A stretch of 64,000 nucleotides of DNA from NCBI GenBank assembly GCA_964600895.1, contig CAZRKP010000005.1, positions 118,068 through 182,067 of the forward strand. Reading direction: 5' to 3'. Source of the stretch: an uncultured Victivallis sp. (GTDB lineage: Bacteria > Verrucomicrobiota > Lentisphaeria > Victivallales > GWF2-50-93). The position numbers and the translations under genes are program-made. Below the pieces are notes generated by a model, which was not told where the DNA came from, did not search any database, and was given only the letters and a program-made list of their open reading frames with translations. This document shows, in pieces, positions 10,838 to 33,383 of this stretch (position 1 is its first letter; the number at the start of each line of letters is the position of its first letter).

Positions 10838-10843
10838 TATCTC

Positions 10844-11491: not shown

Positions 11492-11570
11492 GATTTTTAT
11501 TGCCAAAATTTTATAATGGACTATTTTTTATAAGTAATCATATAAGAATTATCATTCCAGGGGGTATACA

Positions 11571-12671: not shown

Positions 12672-12681
12672 CACAGATACT

Positions 12682-16113
<3,432 letters not shown>

Positions 16114-16216
16114 CCCCCCACGCCCTATGTCCTTTTCAAGCGTAGGATGAACTGACTTTTGCTCGCTACCGTTGATAGAATCTTTTTTTCCATAAATATT
16201 ATCCGAAATATTTAGT

Positions 16217-19200
16217 TTACTTTGAACTCCAGCGTTTCCGCCAGTTTTCGGTGCTTTCCTTACGGAGTTCATCAGAGGTCTTGGTCCAATCAAGGGCGGT
16301 GAAAATGGTAAACCCCTCCTTGCCATCGGTCCGCCCGTCAATAACTAATTCCCTCTGATCGGGGGAGAACCTGCCCCATGAAACTTGTCTAATGATGCCA
16401 CTAAACTTCAGAAGTTCATTCTGGGTATTCGGCTCCCAGATTCGGACTGTATGATCATTACTTCCGGAAATAATTCTCTTCCCGTCCGGTGAAAATTCAG
16501 CGAAACAGACAGCCTGTGAATGCATTTTTATTTCCCAGGCACAGGTTCCTGCCTCAATATTCCAAAATCTTATATATCCTGAATAATAGCCTACCAGTAA
16601 ATATTTCCCGTCTGGCGAGAAAGTCACTGACCAAGGGGAATCCATTGCTATGAAAGTCCTGTTCTCTTTCCGGGAAACAAGATCCCAAATGACAATACTG
16701 CTTTGGGGAGGGCATATGGCAATGCACGAGTCGTCTGGACTGAATGCTATCCAATGCGGATTATTCCATTGGATCTTGGATATTTTCAAATCCAAAATTA
16801 TCTGGCCTGAAGCCGCATCCCTTATAAAAGGACCTGCTTTCACATATCGTCCAGTGTTTGAGAATCCAAGATTCATGTCCAGTTTGGTATCCTGCTGCAC
16901 GGACCATATATTCTTCTTTGTCTGAAGATTGTGGAGAACAAGCGTGTTGGCCTTGTCCTTGTCAAACATGAGCATATAGCGACCATCTCTAGAGACGGTT
17001 GAATATCCATATCTGACTCCAGAGGGGCCTATGGAACGCTGTTCAACTGCCTGATTCCATATGCCCTTTGCATAGAAAAATGAATTCTTGCCTTGTAACT
17101 CTGAAATAAAGGCTCTTCCATCATCAAGAAATTCCAAATCCCCCATCATGGAAGGTTTGGAAAAGGGAATAATGACCTTTTGAGGAAGCTGCTGGAACGG
17201 CCAGATCCTGACAGCATATTTCGATTCATTTGCAGCGGTAAGCAGGCTTTTACTGTAGGGAAGAAGGACACACTTCAGTACTTGTTCGGAATGTCCTGTA
17301 AATTTACTGATCATCCTTCCAGTTTTACTTTCCCAGACATGAACCGCCCCTCCTGCATCTCCTGAAAAGATGTAATCTCCTTCCGGCGAATAGGAAATTG
17401 TGGAAATCGCAGCTCCTGTATTTTGAGACATGAGAACAGTCTTTCCTGTTGTCAAATCCAGTTCAACAACACTTCCGTTCCAACAGCCTCCGGCAAGCCT
17501 TGATCCATCCGGTGAAAAAACACTATATTCATGCCATCCTTCGGTGGTCAGTAAAATATCACCCTTCTGCGTGTCATATATTTTTGTTCTGTGCAAATTA
17601 CTACCAACATCTTCAGAAAATGACATTTTTCTCCCGTCAGGTGAGACAATAATGGGGATACTTCCTTCATTAAGCTTGCGAATCTCCTTCCCTTCCCTAA
17701 TATCCCATAAGGCGTGCTCCATCTTCTTTTTATCTGTATCAAGAGAGGCTGAAATCACGGCATGTGAATTATCTTGCATAAAGATGACCTTCTGGAAGGA
17801 ATAGCCTTCTTTATTTTGAGTCCATAAGACACGACTGCTTTCCAAATCAAACAAGGAAATATCACTGTCTCTCGCCATAATTATAGTCTGCCCATCAGGA
17901 GAAATAGAGAGTACAAATGTTGAAGCTGGTTTTGTTAAATATGAAATATCCAGCCGTTTCAACTCCCGTGCCCCTTGTACGTCCCATAGGATCCTTTCTT
18001 TAGCTTTATGAGATCCAGTAATCATCCTTTTCCCATCTGCGCTCACTTTGCAGAGCCAGATCGATTCGACATTGAAAACAGCTTCCTCTCTGGGGCAAAG
18101 CCCCATCAGATATCCCCATTCCCAGTTCCGCAGATATTGAGGACAACTTTCCAAAGTATTCTTGGCCGAAATAATATCTCCCTCGGCTATTTTACGGTCC
18201 GCAAGCTGGATTTTCGCCACATAGGCTTCCCATTCAGCCTTCTTCCTGATTTCTTTTTCACTTTCTTCAGCAGCTTGGGCTTTTTTCATGGAAGCAGAAG
18301 CAACTTTTTCATTGGCAACTGCCTTCCTCCACTGGGCAAGAGAGATTACAAGACCAAGCATTATTGAAAGAAGGACAAGGGCGGCAGCAGTTACAAAACC
18401 CTTGTGCCGTTTCGCCAGAAGCCAGAACTGCTTTATCACGCCTGCCTTTTCTGCGGATGTCGCAAATCCCCCTTGATACGCCTCAATGTCCTTCTGCAAA
18501 GCCTTCACATCCTGATAACGTTCCTCTTTCCTAAGCGACAACGCCTTCAGTGCTACTGACGACAGCGCCGGAGGTATATGCCCTCCGGGCAGATGAGGCA
18601 AGGACAATTTGTGTGACTTCTCATATTTCGTCGGCGGTTCGATCTGCCCCTTCGCCACCTTCATGAGGACTTCGTTGACGCTGGTACCTTCAATCGGAGG
18701 ATGAAGGGTGAGTATCTGGTAGAGGATGGCACCGAGTGCATAGATGTCGGTTCGCTGGTCAATCTCCGATATTCTGCCATACGCCTGTTCCGGAGCCATA
18801 TATAACGGAGTGCCCCTGAGCTGTCCTTCCATGGTCATCGCACCTGATCCGGCAATATTCTCTTCTGTCCTTGCGGATTCTATCTGAGCACTGGTATCTT
18901 CAGCTTCTTCCTCTTTGCTCCCAAGAACCTTCCCAAGACCCCAGTCCATAACAAGCGCCTCTCCGAACTCTCCAACCATGATGTTCTCGGGTTTCAGATC
19001 CCGGTGGACAACTCCTTTTGTATGCGCAAAAGACATGGCTTCGCAGATCTTCAGGAAGATATTGAGAAGACTGTTTAGAGGATATTTCGTGATTAATTCG
19101 GCGTCCCCATCTTTGATTCCCGCCAGAATCTTATCAAGGTTGTCCCCTTTTATGAACTTCATCGTGTAGAAGACGTTGCCAGAAGAATCGACCCCGAGCT

Positions 19201-19582
19201 CATGGACAGGAACGATACTCGGATGCTCCATCTGTCCGGTGATCTGCGCTTCCTCAATAAACCTTAGTATCTGTTCATCGTTGGCCCTTTTCGGATCAAG
19301 TAGCACCTTCATCGCTACGGTACGACGGATATTTAAATCCTTGGCCTGAAGTATCGCTCCCATGCCCCCTGCGGCAACTTTGCTTCCAATGTCGTATTTC
19401 TTTCCGGCTTGATCGACGAGAATTGAAGATGCGGAAGAAGAGGACTTTCCCTTTTCATCAAGGGCAACTCCACCATCAATTCCCTTCTTTTCCAGGAACT
19501 GCGTGATCGTTATCCCGCCGCGCTGGATGTCGGAGTCAAGGGTTGCTTTCAATTCGGAAAGATTATTTTCCCTGTCAGCCAT
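16217..19582 (-). CDS. Ser/Thr protein kinase - TM - coiled coil - WD40 beta-propeller protein (paralogue 2)
   Basis: Same architecture as paralogue 1. The kinase domain is near-identical, including an 89-nt stretch of perfect DNA identity (19113-19201 versus 15713-15801). Confidence 0.9.
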   Translation of the reverse strand: MADRENNLSELKATLDSDIQRGGITITQFLEKKGIDGGVALDEKGKSSSSASSILVDQAGKKYDIGSKVAAGGMGAILQAKDLNIRRTVAMKVLLDPKRANDEQILRFIEEAQITGQMEHPSIVPVHELGVDSSGNVFYTMKFIKGDNLDKILAGIKDGDAELITKYPLNSLLNIFLKICEAMSFAHTKGVVHRDLKPENIMVGEFGEALVMDWGLGKVLGSKEEEAEDTSAQIESARTEENIAGSGAMTMEGQLRGTPLYMAPEQAYGRISEIDQRTDIYALGAILYQILTLHPPIEGTSVNEVLMKVAKGQIEPPTKYEKSHKLSLPHLPGGHIPPALSSVALKALSLRKEERYQDVKALQKDIEAYQGGFATSAEKAGVIKQFWLLAKRHKGFVTAAALVLLSIMLGLVISLAQWRKAVANEKVASASMKKAQAAEESEKEIRKKAEWEAYVAKIQLADRKIAEGDIISAKNTLESCPQYLRNWEWGYLMGLCPREEAVFNVESIWLCKVSADGKRMITGSHKAKERILWDVQGARELKRLDISYLTKPASTFVLSISPDGQTIIMARDSDISLFDLESSRVLWTQNKEGYSFQKVIFMQDNSHAVISASLDTDKKKMEHALWDIREGKEIRKLNEGSIPIIVSPDGRKMSFSEDVGSNLHRTKIYDTQKGDILLTTEGWHEYSVFSPDGSRLAGGCWNGSVVELDLTTGKTVLMSQNTGAAISTISYSPEGDYIFSGDAGGAVHVWESKTGRMISKFTGHSEQVLKCVLLPYSKSLLTAANESKYAVRIWPFQQLPQKVIIPFSKPSMMGDLEFLDDGRAFISELQGKNSFFYAKGIWNQAVEQRSIGPSGVRYGYSTVSRDGRYMLMFDKDKANTLVLHNLQTKKNIWSVQQDTKLDMNLGFSNTGRYVKAGPFIRDAASGQIILDLKISKIQWNNPHWIAFSPDDSCIAICPPQSSIVIWDLVSRKENRTFIAMDSPWSVTFSPDGKYLLVGYYSGYIRFWNIEAGTCAWEIKMHSQAVCFAEFSPDGKRIISGSNDHTVRIWEPNTQNELLKFSGIIRQVSWGRFSPDQRELVIDGRTDGKEGFTIFTALDWTKTSDELRKESTENWRKRWSSK

Positions 19583-19679
19583 ATACCCCCGAAAAATGAT
19601 TAAAGAAGTTGTATATAAATACTTTTCTTACCGCATATAGTCAATAATGACAAAGCAGTAAATTCATGCTGGTATGGAA

Positions 19680-20660
19680 TTATTTTCCTTTTGCAGGCAC
19701 CCAGCTGACATCTTTTACGGTGAACGAGGATTTGTCGTCTTTTTCCTTGGAGATGGAAGGACAGTATACCCAGGTCCTGATGGTTCCGTTCTTAGTGTCA
19801 ATCTCGAAAAGCCTTACAGGATTCGTCTCATTGTCGTGATAGCACTGGATGAATTCGTAAATGGTGTTGCCATTGTCACCCTTGTCGGTCCTGTATCCAT
19901 GCTTCCCGGCGTGGCCGCAGAAGACAAGCTTGACATTTGAATACTTCTTTACGAGGTTGTCAAAGATGAACTGTGGACTGTTGTTGCCATACCCTCCATT
20001 TGTCTTTTCAATCGCTCCTCCCCCATTCAGGAAGGAATGTGTAACAAAGATTATGTTGTGGTTGGGATGATCCTCCACGACTTTCTTCGCCCATTCGACA
20101 GCCTCGGTCCTCGCCCACAGTTCCAGGCTGATCACGAGCCAGTCAAGTCCGCCTGCCTTGAATGTCTGGAACGAGTTTTCTACCTTGGCCTTCTCAAATG
20201 TTCCTCCCAGGTTCTTGAAGCGTTTAACCGGGAAATATGTATTGAAAGTCGAAGTGTTCCTCAGGTTTGTGTTGACATTGCCCGGAGCTGCGCTGCCACC
20301 TTCCTTCGTTGCCGCAGAATCATGGTTCCCAAGCGCAACGGCATATTGGATCCCGGCCTTGTCGAGGATCTCAAATCCCTTGCTGTTCCTTTCATACTGG
20401 GCATGGTCCGGAGTGTCCCAGTTCATCATGTCGCCCACATGCAGGACTATCTTGAGATTAAGCTCCTTCTGGTTGTCGACGAGCCACTGCATGCGGTTCT
20501 TGAGCCTGGTATCCTTGTCGTTTAAGATCTCCTGCTGGGAATCCGGAATGACGGCGATAGTGAATTTATCCTCGGAAAAACAGTTCCATGAATAAAGCAC
20601 TCCTGCCAGCAATCCAAACAGCAGGATTATTTTTCTAAGCATTGCCATAAAAATTCTCAT
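19680..20660 (-). CDS. Secreted calcineurin-like metallophosphoesterase
   Basis: Signal-like N-terminus. 'IAVIPDSQQE', 'LHVGDMMNWD', 'LGNHD' and 'FVTHSF' are the metallophosphatase motifs. The start overlaps the upstream stop (ATGA). Confidence 0.8.
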   Translation of the reverse strand: MRIFMAMLRKIILLFGLLAGVLYSWNCFSEDKFTIAVIPDSQQEILNDKDTRLKNRMQWLVDNQKELNLKIVLHVGDMMNWDTPDHAQYERNSKGFEILDKAGIQYAVALGNHDSAATKEGGSAAPGNVNTNLRNTSTFNTYFPVKRFKNLGGTFEKAKVENSFQTFKAGGLDWLVISLELWARTEAVEWAKKVVEDHPNHNIIFVTHSFLNGGGAIEKTNGGYGNNSPQFIFDNLVKKYSNVKLVFCGHAGKHGYRTDKGDNGNTIYEFIQCYHDNETNPVRLFEIDTKNGTIRTWVYCPSISKEKDDKSSFTVKDVSWVPAKGK

Positions 20661-21841
20661 ATCTGGTACGACTGGTTTCCGGCCGGTATTTCTATGAAGA
20701 ATGTGGTTCCCTCAGATTCATTTGAAGTGAACCATGCCCTTCCCTTGAGATATTTTTCTGTAAGGAGCCTGATGCTATAGGTGCCAAGACCGCGACCAAC
20801 GCCCTTTGAAGAAAAGGAACGGTTGAAGACCTGTCTCTGTACATGTTCAGGCATCATGCCGGGATTGTTGACGCTGAAAATCACATTTGTACCGTTGGAA
20901 CAACATCCAAGCGTGACTTCCTGCCCTGTCTTTATCGCTTCAAGTGCATTCTTGACCATGTTGCCAAGAATCCTGCGGACAATTGTCTTGTCGGAAACAA
21001 CTGGCAAGTCCTTGAAATCCGTGGAGATAACAACCGTTTTACCTTCGTCTCCCTGCTTCCTCCTGTATAGAGAACAAACTTCCTCTGCAACCATGCAAGT
21101 TCTGAATTCCTGTGGGGACAGTTTCAGATCATTGTGTTCGGCGTATGATATCATGCGCTGTGCCTTTATCTCTTCCGTAAGTGCCTCGGTGGAATCCGCA
21201 AAGAGATGCATGAGCTTGTCAATATCCTTCACCCTTCCCATCTTGAACAGCTCCGAGATCTGGTGAAGTTCGTTTGCTATGTTCATCACATCGTGGAAGA
21301 AAATCTTTTCGAGAGCGACCCTCCTCTTTTCGTCGCTGATGCATCTGAGCACATAGGCCACGAAATTCTTTTCACCTATCTGAATAGGTTTCGCCCAAAG
21401 GCGGAAATCCATGGCGTGTCCAGGTGGTTCCCTGAGAAAAAGGAGAACTTCCCTGCGGCCCTCATTGCCTTTCTGGGCATCCATGAATGCATTCGTACCT
21501 GCGCAGAACTGGCACACATCAGAAGTACCGCAACCTCCACTGCTATTGAAGGAGTTCTTGCAACCAAGCAGTTCACCTACGCGCAGCCCATAAGGCTCAG
21601 GCCCGTTGTTCTCCCTCTGGAAGTCAAGGCATGCCTTGTTTGCGAAGACTATCTGCCTCTGGTCATTGAGAACAATGAACATATCGGTGGTCGCATCAAG
21701 AAATTCCTGTATCAAATGGACCTTGGCCTTGTTCACCTTGGATATCTGGGTTTCCAGTTCGTCCAAGGACAGCCTTTCGGCCGGGGCATACTTGCTATTT
21801 TCCTTCACAGGCAGGTCCATTTTTATCTCCTTGAAAATCAT
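20657..21841 (-). CDS. Soluble sensor histidine kinase with a PAS-like domain carrying a C-x9-C-x5-C-x2-C motif
   Basis: No TM segment. 'FIVLNDQRQIVFANKA' is PAS-like. Cys motif 'CKNSFNSSGGCGTSDVCQFC'. H-box-like 'FFHDVMNIANELH'. HATPase_c motifs 'NMVKNALEA...GVGRGLGTYSIRLL'. Confidence 0.8.
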   Translation of the reverse strand: MIFKEIKMDLPVKENSKYAPAERLSLDELETQISKVNKAKVHLIQEFLDATTDMFIVLNDQRQIVFANKACLDFQRENNGPEPYGLRVGELLGCKNSFNSSGGCGTSDVCQFCAGTNAFMDAQKGNEGRREVLLFLREPPGHAMDFRLWAKPIQIGEKNFVAYVLRCISDEKRRVALEKIFFHDVMNIANELHQISELFKMGRVKDIDKLMHLFADSTEALTEEIKAQRMISYAEHNDLKLSPQEFRTCMVAEEVCSLYRRKQGDEGKTVVISTDFKDLPVVSDKTIVRRILGNMVKNALEAIKTGQEVTLGCCSNGTNVIFSVNNPGMMPEHVQRQVFNRSFSSKGVGRGLGTYSIRLLTEKYLKGRAWFTSNESEGTTFFIEIPAGNQSYQI

Positions 21842-21933
21842 AAGGAACTAGAGGTCTTTTCGTTTGAAACTTTGTATTTTAAAACCTCCAATGTATACTG
21901 ATATTATAGGGAATTGAAAAGTCCAGAGGCCCC

Positions 21934-22944
21934 ATGAAATATGACCGTAAAAACTTCACGATGATTGAGATCGTCCTGGCGATATCCGTCATATTCATTC
22001 TTCTCAGCCTTACCTTGCCTGGAATCCAGAAGGCCAAGCTGAAGGCCAAAGCCGTAAGATGGCTTGCCTACAACAATGGACTCAACAGGGATCCTGATCT
22101 GGTATTGAACTACAATTTCCAGAATCCTGATATGAGAATGGACACTCCAATGGGAAATTGCGATGTGGTCATCAATGGCGGAGTGGGTTGCGGATTCGAC
22201 GGATTCAAGCCGGAAAAATATAATGCGGTCATGATGAACGCACCCGAATGGAAAAAATCCGGAAGATGGTTGAGTTTTGACAAGTCAATGTCATTTGACG
22301 GTTTCACAGGATACCTCCAGGTTCCAGGCAATGAAGTCCTGAAGCTGACCCCTGGAAGTTCGGATTTCACCGTGGCGGGATGGGTGAAGTTTGATGTTCT
22401 TGGAGGAATCCAGGTCGTCATCTCAAAATCCCTCTGGCCGAACTACTCGGTCTTCGCGATCTATTCCCTGAACAATTCACTGAATGCGGACATCGGCTCC
22501 ATGACTCTTTCCTATACTGGAAATGACTTCAAGGCCGGGAAGTGGTTCCATTTCGCGCTTGTGGCCGACGGCCCGCAGATCTCCTTTTATGTAAACGGGA
22601 AGATTGCTGATTCCTCAAGCTTTGGGTCCGGTGGCAAGGTTGTAATATCTCATGATCCTGGCAACGGTGATCCTCCACACGTTCTTGTAGTCGGCGCCGC
22701 AGGATGGAATGGACACAAGAACCATCCTGGAGATCAGTTGCTTTCAACGGATCCAAACGCGTATTTCCAGCAGAACTATATTCAGGACATCAAGGATACA
22801 ACCGTTATCATTGGTGCAGCCGGGATGCAGGATGCTGCCCCCAGCTTGTTTTTCAAAGGTGCAATGGATGAGATAATACTCTCAAGAAGAGCCTGGAAGA
22901 AAGATGCGGTAAGTGGTCATTTTGAAATGGGAAATCCTTACTAA
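21934..22944 (+). CDS. Prepilin-type N-terminal domain fused to a LamG/concanavalin-A-like lectin domain
   Basis: 'FTMIEIVLAISVIFILLSLTLPGIQKAK' followed by 'DFTVAGWVKF...GKWFHFALVADGPQISFYVNG...FKGAMDEIILSRRAW', a LamG-like pattern. Confidence 0.75.
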   Translation: MKYDRKNFTMIEIVLAISVIFILLSLTLPGIQKAKLKAKAVRWLAYNNGLNRDPDLVLNYNFQNPDMRMDTPMGNCDVVINGGVGCGFDGFKPEKYNAVMMNAPEWKKSGRWLSFDKSMSFDGFTGYLQVPGNEVLKLTPGSSDFTVAGWVKFDVLGGIQVVISKSLWPNYSVFAIYSLNNSLNADIGSMTLSYTGNDFKAGKWFHFALVADGPQISFYVNGKIADSSSFGSGGKVVISHDPGNGDPPHVLVVGAAGWNGHKNHPGDQLLSTDPNAYFQQNYIQDIKDTTVIIGAAGMQDAAPSLFFKGAMDEIILSRRAWKKDAVSGHFEMGNPY

Positions 22945-22962
22945 GGGGAAAAGGGGTTTACA

Positions 22963-24801
22963 ATGGCAAGGATAATAGCTGCTGACGACAATAAGATAAC
23001 CCAGATGTTCTACGAGAACATTTTGGAATTCCTCGGCCATGAATACAAGATATGTTCAAACGGCGAGGAGGTCATCGAGGAGTTCATAAGGAAACCAGTG
23101 GACCTCCTGATACTTGACTACCAGATGCCCAAGATGGACGGATTTGAGGTCTGCCGCAAACTCAGGGCTTCTGCGGAAGGAATAACTGTCCCTATAATCA
23201 TAGTCTCCGCCATGCAGGATGAGGAGACCATCATGGAGGGACTCGATGCAGGAGCTACCGACTATCTGCTCAAACCGGTCACAGAAGCACATCTGATTGC
23301 AAAGCTCAAGAACTATCTTAATACTTCCTCCCTTCACAGGAAGGATCTGGATCTTGTGAAGAGCCAGACTGTCTTCGCCGGCCATTACAAGATCGAAAAA
23401 CTGCTCGGATATGGCAGCCATTCAGTGGTTTTCCTGGCGAAGGACAGGAAGAACAATGATGCCGATGTCGCCATAAAGCTCCTGCATGAGAATTCAGATA
23501 CCGTGGCAATAGCCCCAACATTCATGGAGACGGCCTCCAGGATGAGGAATTTGAACTCCGAAAACATATTGAAGATACTTGATTCAGGCCAGTATGGGGG
23601 TCGCCTCTATCTGATAATGGAATACGCGAACCAGAAGGATCTCGCTTCACTGCTGAAGACAAGAACCCTCACCGACAGGGAGACGGCTCTTCTGATATCA
23701 AGCATGCTGGAAGCACTGAAGACACTAAAGGAAAACAACCTCGTCCATTTTGACATAAAACCGGAGAACATCCTGATAAAGGACAATCTCTTCAAGCTGG
23801 GCGATTTTGGGATAGTACCATCTGCCAATGCTAAAAGTACGATTTCACTGGACAAGGGGAATGTCTGGACAACGATGTCCTATCTTGCCCCGGAAAATCT
23901 GAATCTCTCCACAGATCAGACATTCTCTCCTGATATAAGATGCGACATCTACAGTCTTGGTGTCACTGCATATGAATCATTTTCCGGAGACAATCCTTTC
24001 GATTCTGACAAGCTCACTGTTTCAATTCACAGGCAGCTGAGCTATGTCCCTCCTCCATTGCATGTCCAGACTCCTGCGATCCTGCGCATACTTTCAGATG
24101 CTATTGAATCAATGCTCAGGAAAAATCCCGAGGAAAGGGCTGAACTCGACCAGCTTCTGCCTGCTTTTGTGGAAATAAACGCCTATCTCGCGACCAAAAA
24201 TCCTGTCTTAGTAGGATATACTACCGGTTCAGAGGCCAAGCCTGAGGAACAGAAACCTGTCGGTAATGCCGGTCCTGCCCAGGAACCATCAAAATCTGAA
24301 CCTGCTGAAGCCAGCGAACCAGTTCTGGAACCGCTGTCCAAAACATATTTCAGGGAGCTTCCCTACAGGGAGGCCTATGATTTCAAATATAAGGCTCTCA
24401 GGCTCATTGCTGCCGTTGCAATTCTGGCAGTAAGCACCTGGCTCAGCCTGACATTATACAAGTTCATGTTGAACAAGATGACCCCTGTAGATGATACTGC
24501 TTCCATATACGCGGTCAAATGCAGGAGTTGCGGACAGTTCCAGGAAATGAACATAACTGACATAAAGAATGCAAAATGCCAGTTCTGCAAAAAGACAGAT
24601 CTTTGCTATATGATGACTTGCGACGACTGCGGAAACGTATTCCCGTTCAGAAATGAATATCCGAAGGATGTAAAGTCAAAGGAAGAAATGATAGAAGCTC
24701 TTCAGCAGATGAACCGCTGTCCATCATGCGGCTCATCGAAGATCGAACCTTCATATACGAATATCAAGATGCTGAAGAAGTTCAAATCCGAAAAGAAGTG
24801 A
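22963..24801 (+). CDS. Response-regulator receiver (REC) - Ser/Thr protein kinase - TM - double zinc-ribbon fusion protein
   Basis: REC: 'IIAADDN...DLLILDYQMPKMDGFEVCRKLR...DYLLKPV'. Kinase: 'VAIKLL', 'HFDIKPENILI', 'GDFGI', 'YLAPE'. TM: 'LIAAVAILAVSTWLSLTLY'. The C-terminus has CxxC pairs ('CRSCG..CQFCKK', 'CDDCG..CPSCGS'). Confidence 0.9.
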   Translation: MARIIAADDNKITQMFYENILEFLGHEYKICSNGEEVIEEFIRKPVDLLILDYQMPKMDGFEVCRKLRASAEGITVPIIIVSAMQDEETIMEGLDAGATDYLLKPVTEAHLIAKLKNYLNTSSLHRKDLDLVKSQTVFAGHYKIEKLLGYGSHSVVFLAKDRKNNDADVAIKLLHENSDTVAIAPTFMETASRMRNLNSENILKILDSGQYGGRLYLIMEYANQKDLASLLKTRTLTDRETALLISSMLEALKTLKENNLVHFDIKPENILIKDNLFKLGDFGIVPSANAKSTISLDKGNVWTTMSYLAPENLNLSTDQTFSPDIRCDIYSLGVTAYESFSGDNPFDSDKLTVSIHRQLSYVPPPLHVQTPAILRILSDAIESMLRKNPEERAELDQLLPAFVEINAYLATKNPVLVGYTTGSEAKPEEQKPVGNAGPAQEPSKSEPAEASEPVLEPLSKTYFRELPYREAYDFKYKALRLIAAVAILAVSTWLSLTLYKFMLNKMTPVDDTASIYAVKCRSCGQFQEMNITDIKNAKCQFCKKTDLCYMMTCDDCGNVFPFRNEYPKDVKSKEEMIEALQQMNRCPSCGSSKIEPSYTNIKMLKKFKSEKK

Positions 24802-25851: not shown

Positions 25852-27549
25852 ATGAAAATGCCATTCCCATCTGTCTCAAGGACAATCATAGTTCTCATGC
25901 TGTTTTTGTCGACCGCCGCTTCGGCAAGGGCAATAAGCTGGGAGTTCTCTGAAGTCTCGCTTTCGATCCGGCCAGACGGCAAGGCGACGGTCGTGTATCA
26001 AGTTGCAATCAATCCCCAGGGCTTCAACCTCCACGGATTCTATTTTGAAGGGTTTACTGGTAAGCCGCATTTCGACATGACACGCTGTTTCGCCCTTGAC
26101 GCGCAGAACAAAAAATATGATCTTTCAATAAAGCCTGTGAGCAGTTCGAAATACGACGTGATCCTCGCAAATGGCGCCGCCATCTCAAACAGCCGGGTGA
26201 TCTACAATCTAACCTATGGCACCGATCTCGCTGAAACCGGCAATCTTGCAGCTACAACATCTTCGGATGGAAAGAATCTCGTGGTCCTCAACTGGGCACC
26301 GGTCCAATGGGAGGATCCTGTCGGACACTATGCCCTGAAGATATACTGGCCAATGGAACTGCCAGACAACAAGGCTCCACGAGAAGAACTCTCGAAGAAA
26401 ATCCTGACTGAACAGTGGATGAACAAGCAATACAAGATGGACTATCGCGCCCAGGAATACAACGGAAAATTCTGGCTGATGCAGCTAATATACTGGGAGA
26501 AAGTGCCTGTCAAGGGGCATTTCCGCATCCAGGAATACGTCGATGCCTCCATCTTCAACCTTCCGGCAAAGAAATCCGCAGACTTGAATACAGGACTCGT
26601 CGAACCTCAGCCGGATGGAGGGAAACAAGTCCAGAATTTTGTACCTCCGACGAATGAACAGAACAACTATGGAGAGAACATAAGGAAATATTCGGTCATT
26701 GCATTGGCTGTGATGGCGGTCATACTGATCATTGCATTCCTGATCATAGTGATCGGAAAACACAACAGCATGCTGAGCGCAGCTGACGGGCTTTCGGATG
26801 TAAGCTGGATAGATCAGGACTGGACTCCTCCGAAAATGATCATCACAACTTTCAGGGAAAAGGGGAAGATCCCGAAGCTTTCAGTTCTTGAAGCCGCCTT
26901 GTTCATCGGTCTTCCAGTCAACCGTATCCTTGGAATAATGCTTGGCAAACTCCAGAACCAGGGGGTGGTAAGTCTCCATGATGACGGTCGCATAGATGTC
27001 CTTGATGCTGGAGCAAACCTCGATCAGTTCGAAACTCTGCTTGTACAGGCTGTAGGTCCGGACAACAGGCTCAATCCCGACAAGATCCGTGGACTGGTGA
27101 ATCTCATGGTAGATGAGATGCGCCGCAAATCCTGGGATGCCGACCCTGAAGCGACCACGGAATTTTACACCAATAAGTTCAGGGAGTCCTTTGAAAAGAA
27201 GCCACAGCCCACTGAACAGGATAAAAATTCCCAGCAGTATTATTATGACAACTATTATCCCTACTGGTTCTACTACTGCCATCATAACCATGACTCATAT
27301 CAAACTGCCAGCAATCAAGTTCCCAAGACCGTTCAGGGCAGTCTTGATTCGATTACTGGAATATCCGGGGACTACAAGAGCTTCATGGACAGCCCGGCCT
27401 GTTACCAGGGATGCTTTGTCCATACCGCATGCCATGATGCTTGTCACTCGGCCTGCCATTCGGCGTGTCATTCAGCATGTCATTCGGCATGCCACTCTGC
27501 GTGCCATTCTGCATGCCATTCAGCCTGTGTCAGCGGAGGTGCACATTGA
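25852..27549 (+). CDS. DUF2207-like single-pass membrane protein with a C-terminal Cys/His-rich (Ala-Cys-His-Ser)n repeat tail
   Basis: Signal peptide 'MKMPFPSVSRTIIVLMLFLSTAASARA'. N-terminal domain 'SLSIRPDGKATVVYQVAINPQGFNLHGFYF'. One TM at about aa 280-303 (26689-26760). 'LSVLEAALFIGLPVNRILGIMLGKLQNQGVV' resembles the DUF2207 post-TM motif. The tail reads 'CYQGCFVHTACHDACHSACHSACHSACHSACHSACHSACHSACVSGGAH'. Confidence 0.85.
   Translation: MKMPFPSVSRTIIVLMLFLSTAASARAISWEFSEVSLSIRPDGKATVVYQVAINPQGFNLHGFYFEGFTGKPHFDMTRCFALDAQNKKYDLSIKPVSSSKYDVILANGAAISNSRVIYNLTYGTDLAETGNLAATTSSDGKNLVVLNWAPVQWEDPVGHYALKIYWPMELPDNKAPREELSKKILTEQWMNKQYKMDYRAQEYNGKFWLMQLIYWEKVPVKGHFRIQEYVDASIFNLPAKKSADLNTGLVEPQPDGGKQVQNFVPPTNEQNNYGENIRKYSVIALAVMAVILIIAFLIIVIGKHNSMLSAADGLSDVSWIDQDWTPPKMIITTFREKGKIPKLSVLEAALFIGLPVNRILGIMLGKLQNQGVVSLHDDGRIDVLDAGANLDQFETLLVQAVGPDNRLNPDKIRGLVNLMVDEMRRKSWDADPEATTEFYTNKFRESFEKKPQPTEQDKNSQQYYYDNYYPYWFYYCHHNHDSYQTASNQVPKTVQGSLDSITGISGDYKSFMDSPACYQGCFVHTACHDACHSACHSACHSACHSACHSACHSACHSACVSGGAH
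27427..27534 (+). repeat. Coding tandem repeat: nine 12-nt units encoding A-C-x-[D/S] (1x ACHD, 7x ACHS, 1x ACVS)
   Basis: I read the codons directly. Every 12-nt unit differs from the others at synonymous positions (Ala gca/gct/gcc/gcg, Cys tgc/tgt, His cat/cac, Ser tcg/tca/tct). Confidence 0.95.
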
Positions 27550-28880
27550 TCGATGCCTGGAAAAACAAGGATGCTTTCTCATGGGTGGACGACTATTTCT
27601 CCCATGTCAGACCTCATTTTGACGTAAGGGAGGAAGACAGTCTCCTGATCATACTTCCTAACCGGGCGATGAAGTTGAACAATACCGGTTTCAAGGTCCT
27701 GAAATTCATGAAGGACGGGGGTTCAATCGATAAACTGGTTGGCAAGATAGGGGAAAATGATGGCCGGCGCAGGGAACTTTTCCATTTCCTCTGCGATTTT
27801 CGCAGCCTCATGACCGGATGTCTTGGCGAAGGCAGGGGGCGCAAGGCGGTTTCCATAGAAAAATATTCTGGTTTATTCAATTCACTTCCGGTGCTTTCGG
27901 AGATCGCCGTCACCTACCGTTGCAACCTGAAATGCAGGTTCTGCTACGCTGCATGCGGATGCCGGCGGAAAGATGAAGATGAACAAGAAATGTCCACCAA
28001 TGAAATCAAACGCGTCCTCGGTACAATCAGAAATGACGCCAAGGTCCCATCGGTCAGTTTTACAGGAGGAGAACCTCTTCTCAGGAATGATCTGGAGGAA
28101 CTTGTCTCTTCAGCAAAGAAAATCGGGCTGAGAGTCAACCTGATAACCAACGGAACGCTTCTTGCAGGAAATGATCGTGCAGGAAGGCTTCAGAAGGCGG
28201 GATTGAATTCGGCACAGGTTTCCCTCGAAGGTCCGAATGCAGAAATCCATGATGAACTTACGGAAGTTGCGGGCTCATTTGAAAAGACGATGGAAGGGAT
28301 ACGCGCCTTGAAGAAATCCGGAATACATGTCCATACGAACACGACCATAAATTCGAAGAATTCCGGCCATCTCGTGGAACTTGTCCGGACCGTATCGGAA
28401 CTCGGGCTGAGTCGGATGTCCATGAACATGGTGATTCCGACCGGCAGCGCAGTCAAATCAAAGCTGCAGGTCTCATACACGGAGATATGGCCAATAATCG
28501 AGCCAGTTCGAAATGAAGCGAGACGGCTCGGAATTGAATTCATGTGGTATTCACCGACCCCCATGTGCATATTCAATCCTCTTGCGGAAGGATTCGGCAA
28601 CAAGAGCTGTGCTGCATGCGACGGACTGCTCAGCATCGCACCGAACGGCGATATACTGCCATGTTCAAGTTATCCAAAATCCGTAGGCAACCTGCTGCGC
28701 CAGCCGTTCCCGGAAGTTTGGAATTCCGCTACCTCCCTTTTCTTCAGGAAAAAGGAATATGCGCCGGGAGAGTGTTCGGGATGCGGCGACTTTTCAGCCT
28801 GTACAGGAGCATGCCCTCTCTACTGGTCCGCCATGGGAACTGCCGAACTCGGTGAAAGGAGGAAGCATGCTGCTGCCTGA
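27546..28880 (+). CDS. Radical SAM / SPASM domain peptide-modifying enzyme with an N-terminal PqqD/RRE-like domain
   Basis: 'YRCNLKCRFCYA' is the CxxxCxxC motif. The SPASM motifs are 'CDGLLSIAPNGDILPC' (CX9GX4C) and 'CSGCGDFSACTGAC' (CX2CX5CX3C). The N-terminus 'LLIILPNRAMKLNNTGFKVLKFMKDGGSIDKLVGKI' is PqqD-like. The likely start is TTG 27546, overlapping the upstream TGA, with GTG 27585 as an alternative. The ORF-track start at 27441 is an out-of-frame reading of the repeat. Confidence 0.9.
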   Translation: MIDAWKNKDAFSWVDDYFSHVRPHFDVREEDSLLIILPNRAMKLNNTGFKVLKFMKDGGSIDKLVGKIGENDGRRRELFHFLCDFRSLMTGCLGEGRGRKAVSIEKYSGLFNSLPVLSEIAVTYRCNLKCRFCYAACGCRRKDEDEQEMSTNEIKRVLGTIRNDAKVPSVSFTGGEPLLRNDLEELVSSAKKIGLRVNLITNGTLLAGNDRAGRLQKAGLNSAQVSLEGPNAEIHDELTEVAGSFEKTMEGIRALKKSGIHVHTNTTINSKNSGHLVELVRTVSELGLSRMSMNMVIPTGSAVKSKLQVSYTEIWPIIEPVRNEARRLGIEFMWYSPTPMCIFNPLAEGFGNKSCAACDGLLSIAPNGDILPCSSYPKSVGNLLRQPFPEVWNSATSLFFRKKEYAPGECSGCGDFSACTGACPLYWSAMGTAELGERRKHAAA

Positions 28881-29868
28881 TCCAAAACGCCGTGGGGAGA
28901 TCCATTTTATCTTCGTGAAATCTATGCCATATACGACCAGGCTTTCCCTGATCGTCATTTTACTTCTAACTGGATTTGGATTGCAGATATTCCTCGGATG
29001 GACTGTAATTGGCGCCATATTCCTCCTTGTTTCATCCATGATGGGGATCGTGAAAGGATATACGAACGTACCGGAGGAGCTTGGTTCAAAGAAGGAATGG
29101 CGCTCGGGCGACAAGCAGCAGCTTGAAAAAATCCTCGAGATATCGGAGAATTCACGAAGATGGGACAGGAGCTTCATCGACATCACATGCCCCCATGGAT
29201 GCTTTACCCTTGCAGCAATCATTGGAGTCTTCTTCCTCTTTTATTTTGTAAGCTCCAGCTGCGGATATACCTGGCTTGCGCTCACAGTGTCCGTGGATGC
29301 CATCGTATTACTGTTTCCGCACTGGGTGACCGGTGTCCGTCGCATCCTGACAAATGCGCCTCTGACAGTGAAGGTTGAAAATCTCCTGCATATATATACC
29401 ATCTGGGAGGCTATCAAGAAGGATGGAGAGAACATGACCGTCCAACTCGAAGTAGTAAAGGGAACAAAAGGAGAGATGCCTGTTGACGCAAAACTGATTT
29501 TGCAGATACCGGCACTCGGTGAGGATTTCTTCGGTGTGCAGACACAGGTGGTCCTCAATAATGTCCAGGGATCTGATTATCCATATCTCTACTGTGTCCT
29601 TGTTGCAAAGGAAAAATTCGAACTTAGGAAAAAACTATCAAAGGTTTCCTCTGAGGCTGAAGAGTCTTCGAAATCCTCTGATTCATTCCTTGTCAGGCTG
29701 ATAAGGACATCTTCCGGAATCTGTACGGAATGGAAGTCCCAGGACGGCATGGATGTACTCGTGATCCGCCAGCAGACGACTCAGCAGACCGGATACCATA
29801 CCGACAGAAATGCCACGGAACGTCTTTTCAGGTTCGCTTTAAGCAAAGCCCGCAACCTTGTCAAGTAG
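28867..29868 (+). CDS. Uncharacterised membrane protein (about 4 TM plus a soluble C-terminal domain), third gene of the radical-SAM operon
   Basis: ATG 28867 overlaps the rSAM stop by 14 nt. Hydrophobic pairs 'LSLIVILLLTGFGLQIFLGWTVIGAIFLLVSSMMGIV' and 'CFTLAAIIGVFFLFYFV...YTWLALTVSVDAIVLLF'. No family was recognised. Confidence 0.7.
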   Translation: MLLPDPKRRGEIHFIFVKSMPYTTRLSLIVILLLTGFGLQIFLGWTVIGAIFLLVSSMMGIVKGYTNVPEELGSKKEWRSGDKQQLEKILEISENSRRWDRSFIDITCPHGCFTLAAIIGVFFLFYFVSSSCGYTWLALTVSVDAIVLLFPHWVTGVRRILTNAPLTVKVENLLHIYTIWEAIKKDGENMTVQLEVVKGTKGEMPVDAKLILQIPALGEDFFGVQTQVVLNNVQGSDYPYLYCVLVAKEKFELRKKLSKVSSEAEESSKSSDSFLVRLIRTSSGICTEWKSQDGMDVLVIRQQTTQQTGYHTDRNATERLFRFALSKARNLVK

Positions 29869-32105: not shown

Positions 32106-33278
32106 CTATGATGAGGGGGCTTTTCCATCTTCAATAAGGCCTATGTACCCGAAATGTATCGTCATGTCTCCCTTAATGCTTTGCACCTGCGACTTATCAT
32201 AATAAATTACAGAGCACCCTCCTAACTGGACAAGATCCCCGGAAACAAGAATCCTGCGTTCAATCCTTGAACCATTGACATAGGTTCCATTCGCGCTGCT
32301 TTCATCCTTGACTGAGACAGTTGTCCCTTTGAGTTCAAAGGTCGCATGATGGCCCGATACTGTTTCAGAATTTAAGATTACGTCTGAAGACCTGTCCCTT
32401 CCGGCCCTGAGTGTTTTTCCGACGGATACATGGAAGGGATTTCCTTTTTCCGGGATAACAAGCAGGAAAAGTCCTGTCTGTTCGGGAATTGAAACCGACG
32501 ACATCTTTATCCTTATATCATCAATCCTCCTGCTCAGAGCCCTGTTCATTGTATCCTGCACTATCGTTTCCCTGTAGTTTGGAGTGCTATCCACCAGCGA
32601 TTCCAATGCGGATAAGATCACCTTCTCGTTTTTCGTCATCATCGCCAAAGTCTCTTCATCTCCAATGTCCTGGATTATCTGCATAAATTCCTTCTGCACG
32701 ATACCGAGGAAGCGGCTTTTGTGCTGGTAGACTGTTCCCGGTCTGTCAATCCCCAGCCTTTTGCATACTTCATTTACATCCAAGCCTTCAAGGACATAAA
32801 GGCAGAACGATTTATATGTCAGCGAATCAACTTTTCCATATGCTTGCCTGAGAGCCTGGGAGACAACTCCCCTTATCCATATTTCATCATTTTCAGAGTT
32901 GTCGGATACAGCGAGTAAAATATTGTTTTCTACTGCATCTTTTTCATCTGATTCGCCATCTGGAGAGGCAAATAGTTCATTTTCATTCTTCCTGCTTCTT
33001 ATGGTATCAATCACTCGCGCGTAAACTATTTTTTTCAAAAGACCGCGGAAACGACCTTTTTCAGGATGATATTCGAACTCCGGCATTATCCTAAGGAGAC
33101 ATAGCATGGTCTCCTGGAATACGTCATCCAGAAGGGACGGAGGACAGCCCTTGTTCCTTGCCCATCCGGTGATGATGTCCCAGTAAAACTGTGCGAATTC
33201 GGTCCATGCCGTCTCGTCGGCAGGATTTTTGAGCCGCATAAGAAGCGTACAGTGGGTCATTTTATCTGAATACTGCAT
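32106..33278 (-). CDS. Sigma-70 family (ECF-like) RNA polymerase sigma factor fused to a C-terminal FHA domain
   Basis: Region 2-like: 'AWTEFAQFYWDIITGWARNKG...DDVFQETMLCLL'. Region 4-like: 'FCLYVLEGLDVNEVCKRLGIDRPGTVYQHKSRF'. FHA: 'LRAGRDRSSDVILNSETVSGHHATFEL...SSANGTYVNGSRI...GDLVQLG'. Start candidates are TTG 33311, ATG 33278 and ATG 33260. Confidence 0.85.
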   Translation of the reverse strand: MQYSDKMTHCTLLMRLKNPADETAWTEFAQFYWDIITGWARNKGCPPSLLDDVFQETMLCLLRIMPEFEYHPEKGRFRGLLKKIVYARVIDTIRSRKNENELFASPDGESDEKDAVENNILLAVSDNSENDEIWIRGVVSQALRQAYGKVDSLTYKSFCLYVLEGLDVNEVCKRLGIDRPGTVYQHKSRFLGIVQKEFMQIIQDIGDEETLAMMTKNEKVILSALESLVDSTPNYRETIVQDTMNRALSRRIDDIRIKMSSVSIPEQTGLFLLVIPEKGNPFHVSVGKTLRAGRDRSSDVILNSETVSGHHATFELKGTTVSVKDESSANGTYVNGSRIERRILVSGDLVQLGGCSVIYYDKSQVQSIKGDMTIHFGYIGLIEDGKAPSS

Positions 33279-33383
33279 GGATAAAATTATTATAAATAAC
33301 CCTTTTTTCAATATTTATCTAAATTTGAGGCGGTTCATGTTTTCAGGATATTTGGTGTGATTTTAGTCAAAATGCGCCTTCTT

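Follow-up and report, generated by a model that had tools for sequence, protein, structure and literature searches.

Among alternative sigma factors, the ECF family is the largest, and the control of those of its members that have no anti-sigma factor is only partly understood. To our knowledge, direct phosphorylation of an ECF has been demonstrated for ECF43 alone. Phosphothreonine (pThr) reading is well described for the FHA proteins GarA and OdhI, in which phosphorylation of a tail threonine leads to self-binding and the target is released. GarA first docks on PknB via its FHA domain and then binds itself. Binding of the enzyme targets by the FHA domains of GarA and OdhI needs no phosphate.

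Several ECF groups possess C-terminal extensions fused to the sigma core, namely SnoaL-like domains in ECF41, ECF56, ECF294, and ECF295, TPR in ECF42, and a Cys-rich extension in ECF238 (Casas-Pastor et al. 2021, PMC7826278). In ECF43 (EcfP/PknT and EcfK/PknS), the DAED motif of sigma2.2 is replaced by uncharged residues with S/T, and phosphorylation activates the sigma factor (PMC8999054, PMC8103513). A kinase gene at position +1 has been described for ECF59, ECF62, and ECF217, and the planctomycetal kinase-associated groups are ECF59, ECF61, ECF62, and ECF217. Neither the ECF classification (PMC7826278) nor the 1.3 M characters of its supplements contain the terms FHA, forkhead, or PF00498, and no relevant paper on a fused or paired sigma-FHA arrangement came up in literature searches. 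The wiring of a kinase to transcription through a sigma-FHA chain has apparently not been described so far.

In this study, we analyzed a gene for such a chain in a 64,000-nt stretch of DNA from an uncultured Victivallis sp. (the window), and compared its product with fused, paired, and unfused relatives.

Results

Reading frame and overall architecture

The gene for the sigma-FHA fusion is located at 32106..33278 on the minus strand and encodes 390 residues followed by a stop codon, as given by the list of open reading frames and by an identical database protein, P0001. The mechanical open reading frame (32106..33311, minus strand) is longer, with 401 residues, and runs up to a TTG at 33311. 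The ATG at 33278 is likely the true start, because the N-termini of the homologues align there and the database gene call agrees. P0001, which is identical to the 390-residue product, is found in four contigs from five sources.

The preliminary description of this DNA proposed an ECF-like sigma factor with a C-terminal FHA domain. This assignment is real: TIGR02937, Sigma70_r2, and FHA all match above their cutoffs. By sequence comparison the domain architecture is confirmed and lies far above chance, because about 70 diverged proteins carry it and all of them (70/70) match both FHA and Sigma70_r2. The fusion therefore defines a family, with approximately 60–70 representatives at 50% identity. 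An exhaustive profile search yielded about 60 full-length representatives, and the same search also returned many sigma-only proteins of about 200 residues, which matched profile positions 3–207 with 165–285 bits. Matches to the fusion in genomes were confined to Lentisphaerota (Victivallales; 16/16), and the reading frame is uninterrupted in these 16 loci, save one that is disrupted by an IS element. A metagenome scan with a narrower alignment gave 11 loci. An N-terminal extension in the relative P0101 was considered as a receiver domain and was set aside, being without Pfam support.

The sigma half

Sigma region 2 comprises residues 12–103 (32970..33245, minus strand) and is defined by PF04542, TIGR02937, and PDB profile matches. 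The region 2-like segment noticed earlier in the window protein reaches 25.4 bits with the Pfam model Sigma70_r2 (PF04542), above the gathering score of 24. The NCBIfam model TIGR02937 (sigma70-ECF) is matched from position 2 to 164 of 165 with 46.8 bits against a cutoff of 42.9, and its coverage extends to residue 208 of the 401-residue reading frame. All relatives tested likewise match this model end-to-end and above the cutoff, and the unfused relatives of about 200 residues reach 50–76 bits. PDB profile matches for sigma2 include Mtb SigE, R. sphaeroides RpoE, and SigW. The core-binding segment in region 2 reads D52-x-x-Q55-E56, in which Q55 is invariant and position 52 is D or E in all 70 fused members. 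Region 2 is followed by a short acidic sigma2–sigma4 linker of about 23 residues (residues 104–126; 32901..32969, minus strand), which falls into variable, gap-rich alignment columns and has the lowest pLDDT of the internal segments. Regions 3 and 1.1 are absent, and no further sigma-domain match was found in Pfam or NCBIfam. The curated NCBIfam sigma subfamilies all score far below their cutoffs, both for the window protein and for its relatives.

Sigma region 4, with its helix-turn-helix (HTH), was placed at residues 127–205 (32664..32900, minus strand) based on TIGR02937, the relatives, and the structural model. The earlier assignment of a region 4-like segment is borne out by these three lines, including a four-helix sigma4 with HTH modeled at pLDDT >90, but the Pfam region 4 models are silent on the window protein alone, and only weak HTH_28/29 matches cover the segment in Pfam. 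Sigma70_r4_2 is matched in 11 of the 70 aligned family members (best E=4.6e-6) and also in P0144, P0164, and P0152. The recognition helix carries a conserved motif, G-T-V-Y-Q-x-K-x-R, and its residues Y184, Q185, K187, and R189 are invariant in an 18-sequence alignment. Among 30 sigma-only or reverse-order relatives, Y184 is retained in 29, Q185 in 24, K or R at position 187 in 29, and R189 in all 30. The determinants of sigma activity (D52/Q55/E56 and the recognition helix) are thus conserved as in a working sigma factor, and function as such is predicted.

Alternatively, the sigma-like half may be a decoy that mimics a true sigma factor, titrates an anti-sigma factor when the FHA domain senses phosphorylation, and takes no part in transcription. 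PhyR, a sigma-like domain with a phospho-sensing domain that acts as an anti-anti-sigma factor, provides a precedent (PMC8999054), and the sigma part of our protein is divergent, scores just over the cutoffs, and has no sigma4 match in the PDB. However, D-x-x-Q-E and Y184/Q185/K187/R189 are strongly conserved in fused and unfused relatives alike, and the unfused relatives are of ordinary ECF size, with the TIGR02937 scores given above. Neither a NepR-like gene nor a paired true sigma gene is conserved nearby, and searches for PhyR-like features in the window protein and the loci returned no Response_reg match, no NepR-like partner, and no conserved small neighbor. A decoy role is thus very unlikely.

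The C-terminal half and its separate counterparts

In the window protein, 185 residues come after sigma4. They begin with a helical segment (residues 206–262; 32493..32663, minus strand), which was delimited by family conservation and by alignment to stand-alone FHA partners. Its layout is a fusion junction of about 15 residues, a helix, a loop with a threonine, a second helix with the motif RLxxVxxxL, and a PxP motif. The junction is conserved over the family. The helical segment is likewise conserved throughout the fused family and aligns with the first ~50 residues of the stand-alone partners. The preliminary description had placed a passive linker of about 100 residues here; the stretch that actually separates sigma4 from the FHA sandwich has approximately 60–65 residues and is helical and conserved. 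We also considered an anti-sigma domain in this segment and rejected it, as none of the 70 members has a Pfam match there.

The stand-alone partners were found next to the closest unfused sigma relatives. In all five loci examined (L028–L032), an FHA gene of 141–153 codons occupies position +1, and the sigma and FHA genes overlap by 4–7 nt in three of these five pairs. The partners, of about 150 residues, align with residues ~220–362 of the window protein, including the helix–PxP–FHA layout. Independent fusions in the reverse order, FHA before sigma, occur in P0144 and P0164, and in a neighbor-joining tree several fused lineages are interspersed among paired ones. In related PVC bacteria, sigma and then FHA are encoded by separate, translationally coupled genes, commonly beside a Hanks-type kinase gene. 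Because relatives encode the two halves as separate adjoining genes, we regard the window gene as the probable single-chain form of a kinase/FHA-partner/sigma module, the kinase being encoded elsewhere. The FHA domain, which had been taken for an add-on joined by a linker, is better described as the C-terminal part of a whole cognate partner protein of the sigma clade that has been fused on.

The overlap of the separate genes by 4–7 nt means that one indel could fuse them, and an error of sequencing, assembly, or frame might in principle have joined two neighboring genes. The size and diversity of the family refute this explanation: the identical protein comes from four contigs and five sources, the conserved ~15-residue junction recurs in about 70 diverged representatives, and the 16 loci lie in different Victivallales genomes with the reading frame intact or, once, IS-disrupted.

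The FHA domain

The FHA domain comprises residues 263–362 (32193..32492, minus strand). PF00498 is matched at residues 302–364 with E=8.7e-17 and 61.8 bits against a cutoff of 20.7. The FHA motifs that were initially called textbook are all there in the window protein; in the 390-residue numbering, GR (G293/R294), SGHH (S308/H311), and SANG (S328/N330/G331) were confirmed codon by codon. The strands of the domain are predicted at residues 270–361 with pLDDT >90. The remaining C-terminal tail (residues 363–390; 32109..32192, minus strand) is specific to the window protein, has low pLDDT, and has no counterpart in any aligned relative.

In a fold search with the predicted model, the FHA fold was nearest to GarA/OdhI, with TM 0.8–0.89 and an rmsd of ~2 Å. 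PDB entries 2kb3 and 2kfu (GarA/OdhI) were among the fold and profile matches, and 6i2r and 8p5r among the fold-search matches. With the family profile, the best PDB match was EmbR (5.7e-15), and GarA/OdhI matched at ~1e-13. EmbR was the only match aligned over the full length in the fold searches; just its FHA part superposes, and the overall TM is 0.23. OdhI is the best NCBIfam FHA match (NF041660), covering the FHA part only, with 50.9 bits against a cutoff of 200; membership in the OdhI family was rejected on this score.

Across the 70 fused members, G293, S308, and H311 are invariant (70/70) and N330 is present in 69, and the canonical Arg (R294) is retained in 43. The retention of S308, H311, and N330 is the pattern that would be expected under selection for phosphate binding. 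In the 27 members that lack R294, a basic residue occurs at position 309 or 329 in 12, compared with 7 of the 43 that keep it, so that the loss of the Arg may be offset in part.

These losses bear on the possibility that the FHA half acts independently of phosphate, as an anti-sigma-like or stabilizing domain in which the reading of pThr no longer occurs or plays no role, and that control is exerted by proteolysis, by another ligand, or by the expression level. Besides the 27 fused members without the canonical Arg, a sub-group of stand-alone partners that has lost the Arg and the Asn, and once also the Ser, still adjoins its sigma gene, and the FHA domains of GarA and OdhI bind their enzyme targets without phosphate. 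On the other hand, S308, H311, and, with one exception, N330 are kept throughout the fused members, the window protein keeps the full set of pThr-binding residues, and kinase genes recur beside the sigma-FHA pair. We consider a phosphate-independent role improbable.

Candidate phospho-acceptor threonines

The threonine in the loop of the helical segment, Thr238 (codon at 32565..32567, minus strand), lies in the motif [Y/L]-R-x-T-[ILVM]-[IV] and is a candidate phospho-acceptor for the protein's own FHA domain. Within the partner segment, it falls into the stretch modeled with the lowest confidence (pLDDT 66), about 30 residues ahead of the first FHA strand. Position 238 is T in 61 of the 70 fused members (87%) and S or T in 63. 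Its presence tracks that of R294, since S/T occurs in 42 of the 43 members with the Arg and in 21 of the 27 without it (Fisher p=0.011, a value that ignores phylogeny). Among the stand-alone partners, S/T is found at the equivalent position in 8 of 12, and the remaining four have a degenerate FHA domain. This sub-group without the tail S/T has lost both the Arg and the Asn of the FHA domain, and the Ser too in one case; the co-loss represents one lineage event. The conservation and co-variation of T238 suggest self-binding, instead of or besides docking on a pThr of the kinase. Phosphorylation of T238 would be the trigger of this self-binding, as in GarA and OdhI.

The T238 segment is absent from the reverse-order FHA-sigma fusions. 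Therefore, another ligand must serve in these proteins, such as T8 or a pThr of the kinase. Thr8 (codon at 33255..33257, minus strand) is placed before the first sigma2 helix, within the low-confidence N-terminal tail (residues 1–9). It is T in 67 of the 70 fused members and in 30/30 sigma-only or reverse-order relatives. T8 could be a real phospho-site, or it could merely be a helix N-cap.

Kinase genes near the sigma-FHA genes

In four of the five close paired loci, a Ser/Thr kinase gene is located within 5 kb; in L029, L030, L031, and L032, it is found directly upstream of the sigma-FHA pair or near it. More distant sigma-only relatives (L021, L023, L025, and L033) have a kinase gene at +1, as does one fused member, P0092 (L037). 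A divergently oriented kinase gene is next door in L012, L014, and L015, which belong to one sub-clade of the fused loci. Genes for proteins with an FGE-sulfatase domain were also observed among the neighbors of the fused genes.

The window does contain many kinases, as described previously: four Hanks-type kinases are encoded at 11571–12671, 12682–16341, 16217–19582, and 22963–24801. The nearest of them ends ~7.3 kb from the fusion gene, and the fusion has no kinase gene beside it here or at the majority of fused loci. Kinase genes are not enriched beside the fused genes (6 kinases in 236 kb, not above background). The window kinases had been suggested as partners of the sigma factor; nothing connects them to the fusion gene. 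The broader proposal, a direct switch from pThr to transcription, is reasonable because comparative genomics ties the sigma clade to Ser/Thr kinases. What does not carry over is its link to the kinases of this window, and T238 hints at self-binding.

A model built on docking alone differs in its ligand. The FHA domain would bind, in trans, a pThr on an autophosphorylated kinase, in the manner of EmbR and PknH, and the recruited sigma factor would then be phosphorylated, or else sequestered at, or released from, the membrane, with no self-binding. The window protein has the canonical FHA domain that such docking would use, kinases are linked to the sigma clade, and the top PDB match over the full length, EmbR, is a regulator that binds DNA and bears its FHA domain at the C-terminus. 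The reverse-order fusions, which have no T238 segment, would need a trans ligand or T8, and T8 is invariant over the sigma clade, as might be expected of a kinase target on the sigma factor itself. However, this model leaves unexplained that the ~50-residue helical segment and T238 are conserved together with the FHA domain, that the tail Thr and phosphate-binding residues are lost together, and that the protein is predicted as a single compact fold (see below). It is also disfavored by the lack of an adjoining kinase gene, which holds for the window gene and the majority of fused loci. We regard docking without self-binding as possible but rather unlikely. The two modes are compatible, as the docking of GarA on PknB before its self-binding shows.

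Gene neighborhood and promoters

The neighbors of the fusion gene are a convergent gene of the AraC type, an unconserved open reading frame of 128 residues, and a gene for a polysaccharide deacetylase. The previous statement that no anti-sigma gene is adjacent stands, as none is recognizable beside the window gene; moreover, no anti-sigma-like neighbor was found in the window or in the 16 related loci. No neighbor is common to all 16 fused loci. Recurrent neighbors are restricted to sub-clades; they are an LPP20-like lipoprotein with a gene of no known family, and an alpha-L-fucosidase.

An autoregulatory promoter had been suggested as a search target. We enumerated bipartite −35/−10 motifs in the 280 nt upstream of 16 family genes and compared the counts with those of shuffled sequences. 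The best bipartite motif occurred in 7 of 16 loci, compared with up to 6 in the shuffles, and all of the top motifs were AT-rich. An autoregulatory ECF-type promoter was thus not found beyond the shuffle level in these regions, in a comparison of low power. A scan for sigma-70 promoters and terminators around the gene gave counts at the chance level.

Predicted structure

When the 70 sequences were supplied to AlphaFold, the pTM rose to 0.84 and the mean pLDDT to 87. As read from these pTM and pLDDT scores, the protein is predicted to adopt one compact fold, in which the FHA part is packed against the sigma domains.

Discussion

We propose that the window gene encodes an ECF-type sigma factor fused to its own FHA regulator, which acts as a self-binding pThr switch that gates the sigma factor. 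We assign this reading a probability of roughly 55%. In the proposed mechanism, the partner half would pack on the sigma domains and hold them compact. A Ser/Thr kinase would phosphorylate T238 in the loop, and possibly T8 as well. The FHA domain would then capture the pThr, either within the same chain (in cis) or across two molecules (in trans), in the style of GarA and OdhI, and the rearrangement would alter the access of sigma2 and sigma4 to the RNA-polymerase core. Our best guess for the direction, taken from anti-sigma logic, is that the unphosphorylated protein is inhibited, with the partner half being anti-sigma-like, and that phosphorylation is activating. Counting against a self-binding switch, R294 is missing in 27 of the 70 fused members, the T238 segment is absent from the reverse fusions, and neither the window gene nor most other fused genes have an adjacent kinase gene.

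A wider and more tentative proposal is that the FHA partner of about 150 residues, free or fused, represents a new class of soluble pThr-gated anti-sigma factor in a kinase/FHA/ECF pathway widespread among PVC bacteria, its FHA domain toggling between the sigma factor and its own phosphorylated tail. If this is true, the window protein would be a self-contained, one-component version of a three-component pathway.

The family suggests a different solution to the control of a sigma factor, namely a dedicated pThr reader that is paired with it genetically or fused to it in either order. Such an arrangement would connect transcription in PVC bacteria to their very large sets of Ser/Thr kinases. 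As a natural single-chain complex of a sigma factor and its regulator, the fused form would be handy for structural and biochemical work, and synthetic biology might use it as a compact transcription switch that responds to phosphorylation. Our finding also closes a gap in the classification of ECFs, from which Lentisphaerota are almost absent and in which FHA is unmentioned.

Compared with the ECFs that have fused C-terminal extensions, the window protein shares the minimal sigma2–sigma4 core, the lack of an adjoining anti-sigma gene, and an extension of more than 50 residues, whose contacts with the core domains presumably determine activity in both cases. However, the extension here consists of an FHA domain and a helical segment, and not of a SnoaL-like, TPR, Cys-rich, zinc-finger/TM, DUF1835, or WD40 domain. 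Moreover, unlike in those groups, sister lineages encode it in a gene of its own beside the sigma gene, and it is also found fused at the N-terminus.

The kinase-linked ECF groups are similar in that they have no anti-sigma factor, that a Hanks-type kinase gene adjoins the sigma gene (here, in the relatives), and that both belong to PVC lineages. In contrast to ECF59, ECF61, ECF62, and ECF217, a kinase gene at +1 or −2 was not found in the window but only in relatives (L021, L023, L025, L033, and L037), and no FHA reader has been described for any of the kinase-linked groups. A switch like that of ECF43 was considered and is not present, because position 52 is acidic (D or E) in 70/70 fused members and position 51 is often so (E or D in 37/70); the corresponding residues of the window protein are L49-L50-D51-D52, and there is no conserved S/T.

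The sigma-fold module with a putative phospho-sensing domain that would be packed on it when inactive recalls PhyR, the partner switch that works with NepR and EcfG. The sensor of PhyR is REC, whereas it is FHA in our protein, and the sigma determinants are conserved here. EmbR of M. tuberculosis, a SARP-family protein and the partner of PknH, resembles our protein as a transcription protein with a C-terminal FHA domain, which in EmbR provides the coupling to a Hanks-type kinase; however, it is a DNA-binding activator with winged-helix and BTA domains, and no sigma factor. The partner half resembles GarA and OdhI, with which it shares a length of about 150 residues, a tail, predicted to be flexible, with a conserved Thr followed by the FHA domain, and the nearest FHA fold. 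The target differs, being a sigma factor here and enzymes of the TCA cycle or of glutamate metabolism there. The tail motif is [Y/L]RxT instead of ETTS, and the helical segment is found only in the sigma-FHA family.

Gene and domain composition

The protein encoded at 32106-33311 on the reverse strand is an ECF sigma factor fused to its cognate FHA partner, and it belongs to a clade that is genetically linked to Hanks kinases. The true start is very probably ATG 33278, which gives 390 residues, because the database gene call and the N-termini of all homologues coincide there. The FHA domain was matched in Pfam (E=8.7e-17), and a codon-by-codon check showed that its canonical residues are complete (G293, R294, S308, H311, S328, N330, and G331), in agreement with the motifs quoted in the preliminary description. 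The observation reported there is thus confirmed, and Sigma70_r2 narrowly passes in Pfam (25.4 bits versus a gathering score of 24). Region 4 alone has no Pfam match in this protein. However, it lies within the match to the NCBIfam ECF superfamily model TIGR02937 (positions 2-164 of 165, 46.8 bits versus a cutoff of 42.9), it can be aligned to relatives, 11 of 70 of which carry Sigma70_r4_2, and it forms a confident four-helix sigma4 domain in the structure predicted by AlphaFold.

The sigma module contains D52-x-x-Q55-E56, in which Q55 is invariant and position 52 is Asp or Glu in all 70 fused members. Fused and unfused relatives alike show strong conservation of the recognition helix G-T-V-Y184-Q185-x-K187-x-R189. 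These conserved features indicate that the module retains the hallmarks of a functional ECF sigma factor; a PhyR-like decoy is considered less likely. A Gly-Cys pair (G44-C45, window 33144-33149) between the first two sigma2 helices is kept in approximately 94% of the fused and 26 of 30 unfused relatives. Conserved sigma2 cysteines have been noted in some redox- or metal-responsive ECF groups.

What had been taken for a linker of about 100 residues between sigma4 and the FHA sandwich is a helical and conserved segment of approximately 60-65 residues, not a passive linker. The 28-residue tail after the FHA domain (window 32109-32192) is found only in this protein among the aligned relatives and is predicted with low confidence.

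The fused family

A word-seeded search returned 19 full-length relatives with 34-46% identity, all possessing region 2 and FHA, and about 60 full-length fused representatives at 50% clustering came from an exhaustive profile search across 1.84 billion representatives. Both FHA and Sigma70_r2 were matched in each of the 70 fused sequences collected, and an artefact is considered less likely. All 16 fused loci found in a scan of one genome per species are from Lentisphaerota (Victivallales/Victivallaceae MAGs); GC-rich metagenomic members may represent other PVC lineages. No conserved gene neighborhood was found around the fused genes. A kinase adjoins the fused gene only in one sub-clade (L012, L014, and L015) and at +1 of the database protein P0092, and the kinase density near fused genes (6 in 236 kb) shows no excess over background.

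Several members have unusual architectures. In a Victivallales MAG (L014:9986-12930), a DDE-transposase gene (10694-12226) interrupts the sigma-FHA gene at the sigma/partner junction, leaving a 217-aa sigma ORF and a 177-aa FHA ORF; the result is a pseudogene or else a natural fission. P0101 (L038:92-5908) carries an extra N-terminal extension of approximately 120 aa without a Pfam match. Its gene is located directly downstream of those for a PAS histidine kinase, a hybrid histidine kinase, and an FHA-receiver protein, which suggests that a His-Asp phosphorelay is tied to the sigma-FHA module in this lineage. In P0095 (599 aa), the FHA domain is followed by a prepilin-type N-terminal methylation motif and a tail of approximately 230 aa, which may reflect read-through into the next gene or a genuine triple fusion.

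Separate FHA partners and origin of the fusion

In the exhaustive search, many stand-alone sigma proteins of approximately 200 aa matched only the sigma part of the profile, but with high scores (165-285 bits). We inspected the contigs of the closest of them (L028, L029, L030, L031, and L032), and in all five a gene for a 141-153-aa FHA protein directly follows the sigma gene, with an overlap of 4-7 nt in three loci and a gap of 27-85 nt in the other two. L029 and L031 have a Ser/Thr kinase gene directly upstream of the pair; in L030 it lies a few kb upstream, and in L032 it follows shortly downstream in convergent orientation. In more distant sigma-only relatives, a kinase occupies the +1 position (L021, L023, and L025, translationally coupled, and L033), and one Akkermansia member is an orphan. 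Another distant relative adjoins a gene for a 1022-aa TIR and NPHP3/NACHT-like NTPase protein (L020:3098-6166), an architecture typical of anti-phage or cell-death signalling.

The stand-alone FHA proteins align to window residues ~220-362 and share with the window protein the layout of an N-terminal helix, a loop, a helix 'RLxxVxxLL', PxP, and FHA. This alignment indicates that the window protein carries, as its C-terminal 45%, the entire partner protein of the sigma clade, attached via a junction of ~15 residues. Pfam showed the opposite order in P0144 (L036:701-1597, a complete ORF on its contig) and P0164, in which an N-terminal FHA domain and ~15 residues precede the same sigma module from the invariant T8 motif; both lack the helical segment containing T238, and their contigs are too short for gene context. 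Fusion in both orders and recurrent gene adjacency are classic evidence that the sigma factor and the FHA partner act as a physical pair. In a crude neighbor-joining tree without support values, most fused proteins form one clade, and several other fused lineages lie among the paired or sigma-only proteins.

Predicted structure and candidate phosphothreonines

The AlphaFold prediction improved from a pTM of 0.55 with 18 sequences to 0.84 with 70 sequences (mean pLDDT 87). The latter values suggest that sigma2, sigma4, the partner helices, and FHA adopt one well-defined compact arrangement; the only soft parts of the model are residues 1-9, the sigma2-sigma4 linker, the T238 block, and the protein-specific C-terminal tail.

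G293, S308, and H311 are invariant in the 70 fused members, and N330 is present in 69, but the phosphate-binding Arg294 is found in only 43. A basic residue at 309 or 329 occurs in 12 of the 27 members without Arg294 versus 7 of the 43 with it (p=0.014). Two threonines are candidate phospho-acceptors. T8 immediately precedes the first sigma2 helix, within the disordered N-terminal tail, and is conserved in 97 of the 100 proteins, whether fused, unfused, or reverse-order. T238 belongs to a [Y/L]-R-x-T-[ILVM]-[IV] motif in the part of the partner segment that is modelled with the least confidence; it is Thr in 61 and Ser or Thr in 63 of 70 fused members. This residue tracks Arg294 (present in 42/43 proteins with R294 versus 21/27 without, p=0.011, without correction for phylogeny). 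Among 12 stand-alone partners, 8 have Ser or Thr at the equivalent tail position and all 8 retain the FHA Asn, while the other 4, one sub-group, have an acidic 'PDEAD/N' there and have lost both Arg and Asn.

In GarA and OdhI, a phosphorylated tail Thr is the ligand of the protein's own FHA domain. The co-variation of T238 with Arg294 and the joint loss of the tail Ser/Thr and FHA ligand residues form the pattern expected if the same held here, and a phospho-independent partner is considered less likely. The 'PDEAD/PDEAN' sub-group (P0304, P0306, P0308, and P0310; e.g. L031:5633-6091) is still sigma-coupled and kinase-adjacent; perhaps it is a variant that mimics phosphorylation or acts independently of it.

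We propose with moderate confidence that the partner half is bound to the sigma domains and that T238 and/or T8 are phosphorylated by a kinase encoded elsewhere. More tentatively, pT238 would be captured by the FHA domain of its own or of another molecule, which would free or re-orient the sigma domains so that they can engage the core enzyme; in such a scheme, the partner would be an anti-sigma factor while unphosphorylated. The preliminary description had the FHA domain dock on a phosphothreonine of a kinase. This is a live rival, and by analogy such docking may initiate the same self-binding pathway, as GarA docks on PknB before binding itself. The interpretation given in that description is partly supported, and it is refined in that the FHA half is seen as a fused cognate partner that is probably self-reading.

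Genomic neighborhood in the window

As stated previously, no anti-sigma-like protein is encoded among the immediate neighbors, which are a convergent AraC-type regulator, an unconserved 128-aa ORF, and a polysaccharide deacetylase. The many kinases mentioned earlier are four Hanks-type enzymes at 11571-24801, the closest of which ends 7.3 kb from the sigma-FHA gene. This dense signalling cluster encodes a 366-aa kinase, two giant WD40-propeller kinases (1219 and 1121 aa) with overlapping ORFs, and, as the fourth, a receiver-domain-kinase fusion (22963-24801). The gene for a calcineurin-like phosphoesterase (19680-20660) shares 4 nt with that for a 394-aa HATPase_c protein (20657-21841). These proteins are possible sources of the phosphothreonine signal; nothing was found that links the cluster to the sigma-FHA gene. 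Further along, a 565-aa ORF without a Pfam match (25852-27549) overlaps at its end with the gene for a radical-SAM/SPASM protein (27441-28880), after which comes an ORF without matches (28759-29868); 25852-28880 may be a peptide-maturation or anaerobic-sulfatase-maturase-type cluster.

Comparison with known systems

The ECF reclassification describes 19 groups with C-terminal extensions and eight kinase-associated groups, and Lentisphaerae are nearly missing from it (PMC7826278). FHA, 'forkhead', and PF00498 are absent from its text and nine preprint supplementary files (1.3 M characters; PMC7826278), and FHA is unmentioned in reviews of non-canonical ECFs (PMC8999054, PMC8103513). Neither a sigma-FHA fusion nor such a gene pair turned up in full-text literature searches, and no NCBIfam subfamily model came near its cutoff for any member. 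Therefore, the window protein is classed as an ECF superfamily member whose regulatory extension or partner is of a new type. ECF43 proteins have uncharged Ser/Thr residues in place of the DAED motif (PMC8999054, PMC8103513), a signature absent from this sigma module.

Membership in the GarA/OdhI, EmbR, ECF43, or PhyR families was rejected. EmbR is the sole full-length architectural analogue. The FHA part is nearest to the GarA/OdhI class in both fold and sequence (TM 0.8-0.89, rmsd ~2 Å, profile E ~1e-13), the structure and profile matches including PDB 2kfu and 2kb3 of the self-binding GarA and OdhI. The sigma-FHA module, apparently undescribed and recurring in several forms across PVC bacteria, is a logical step beyond known kinase-ECF and FHA biology; by analogy, the window protein may work like a GarA/OdhI-type switch attached to a sigma factor.
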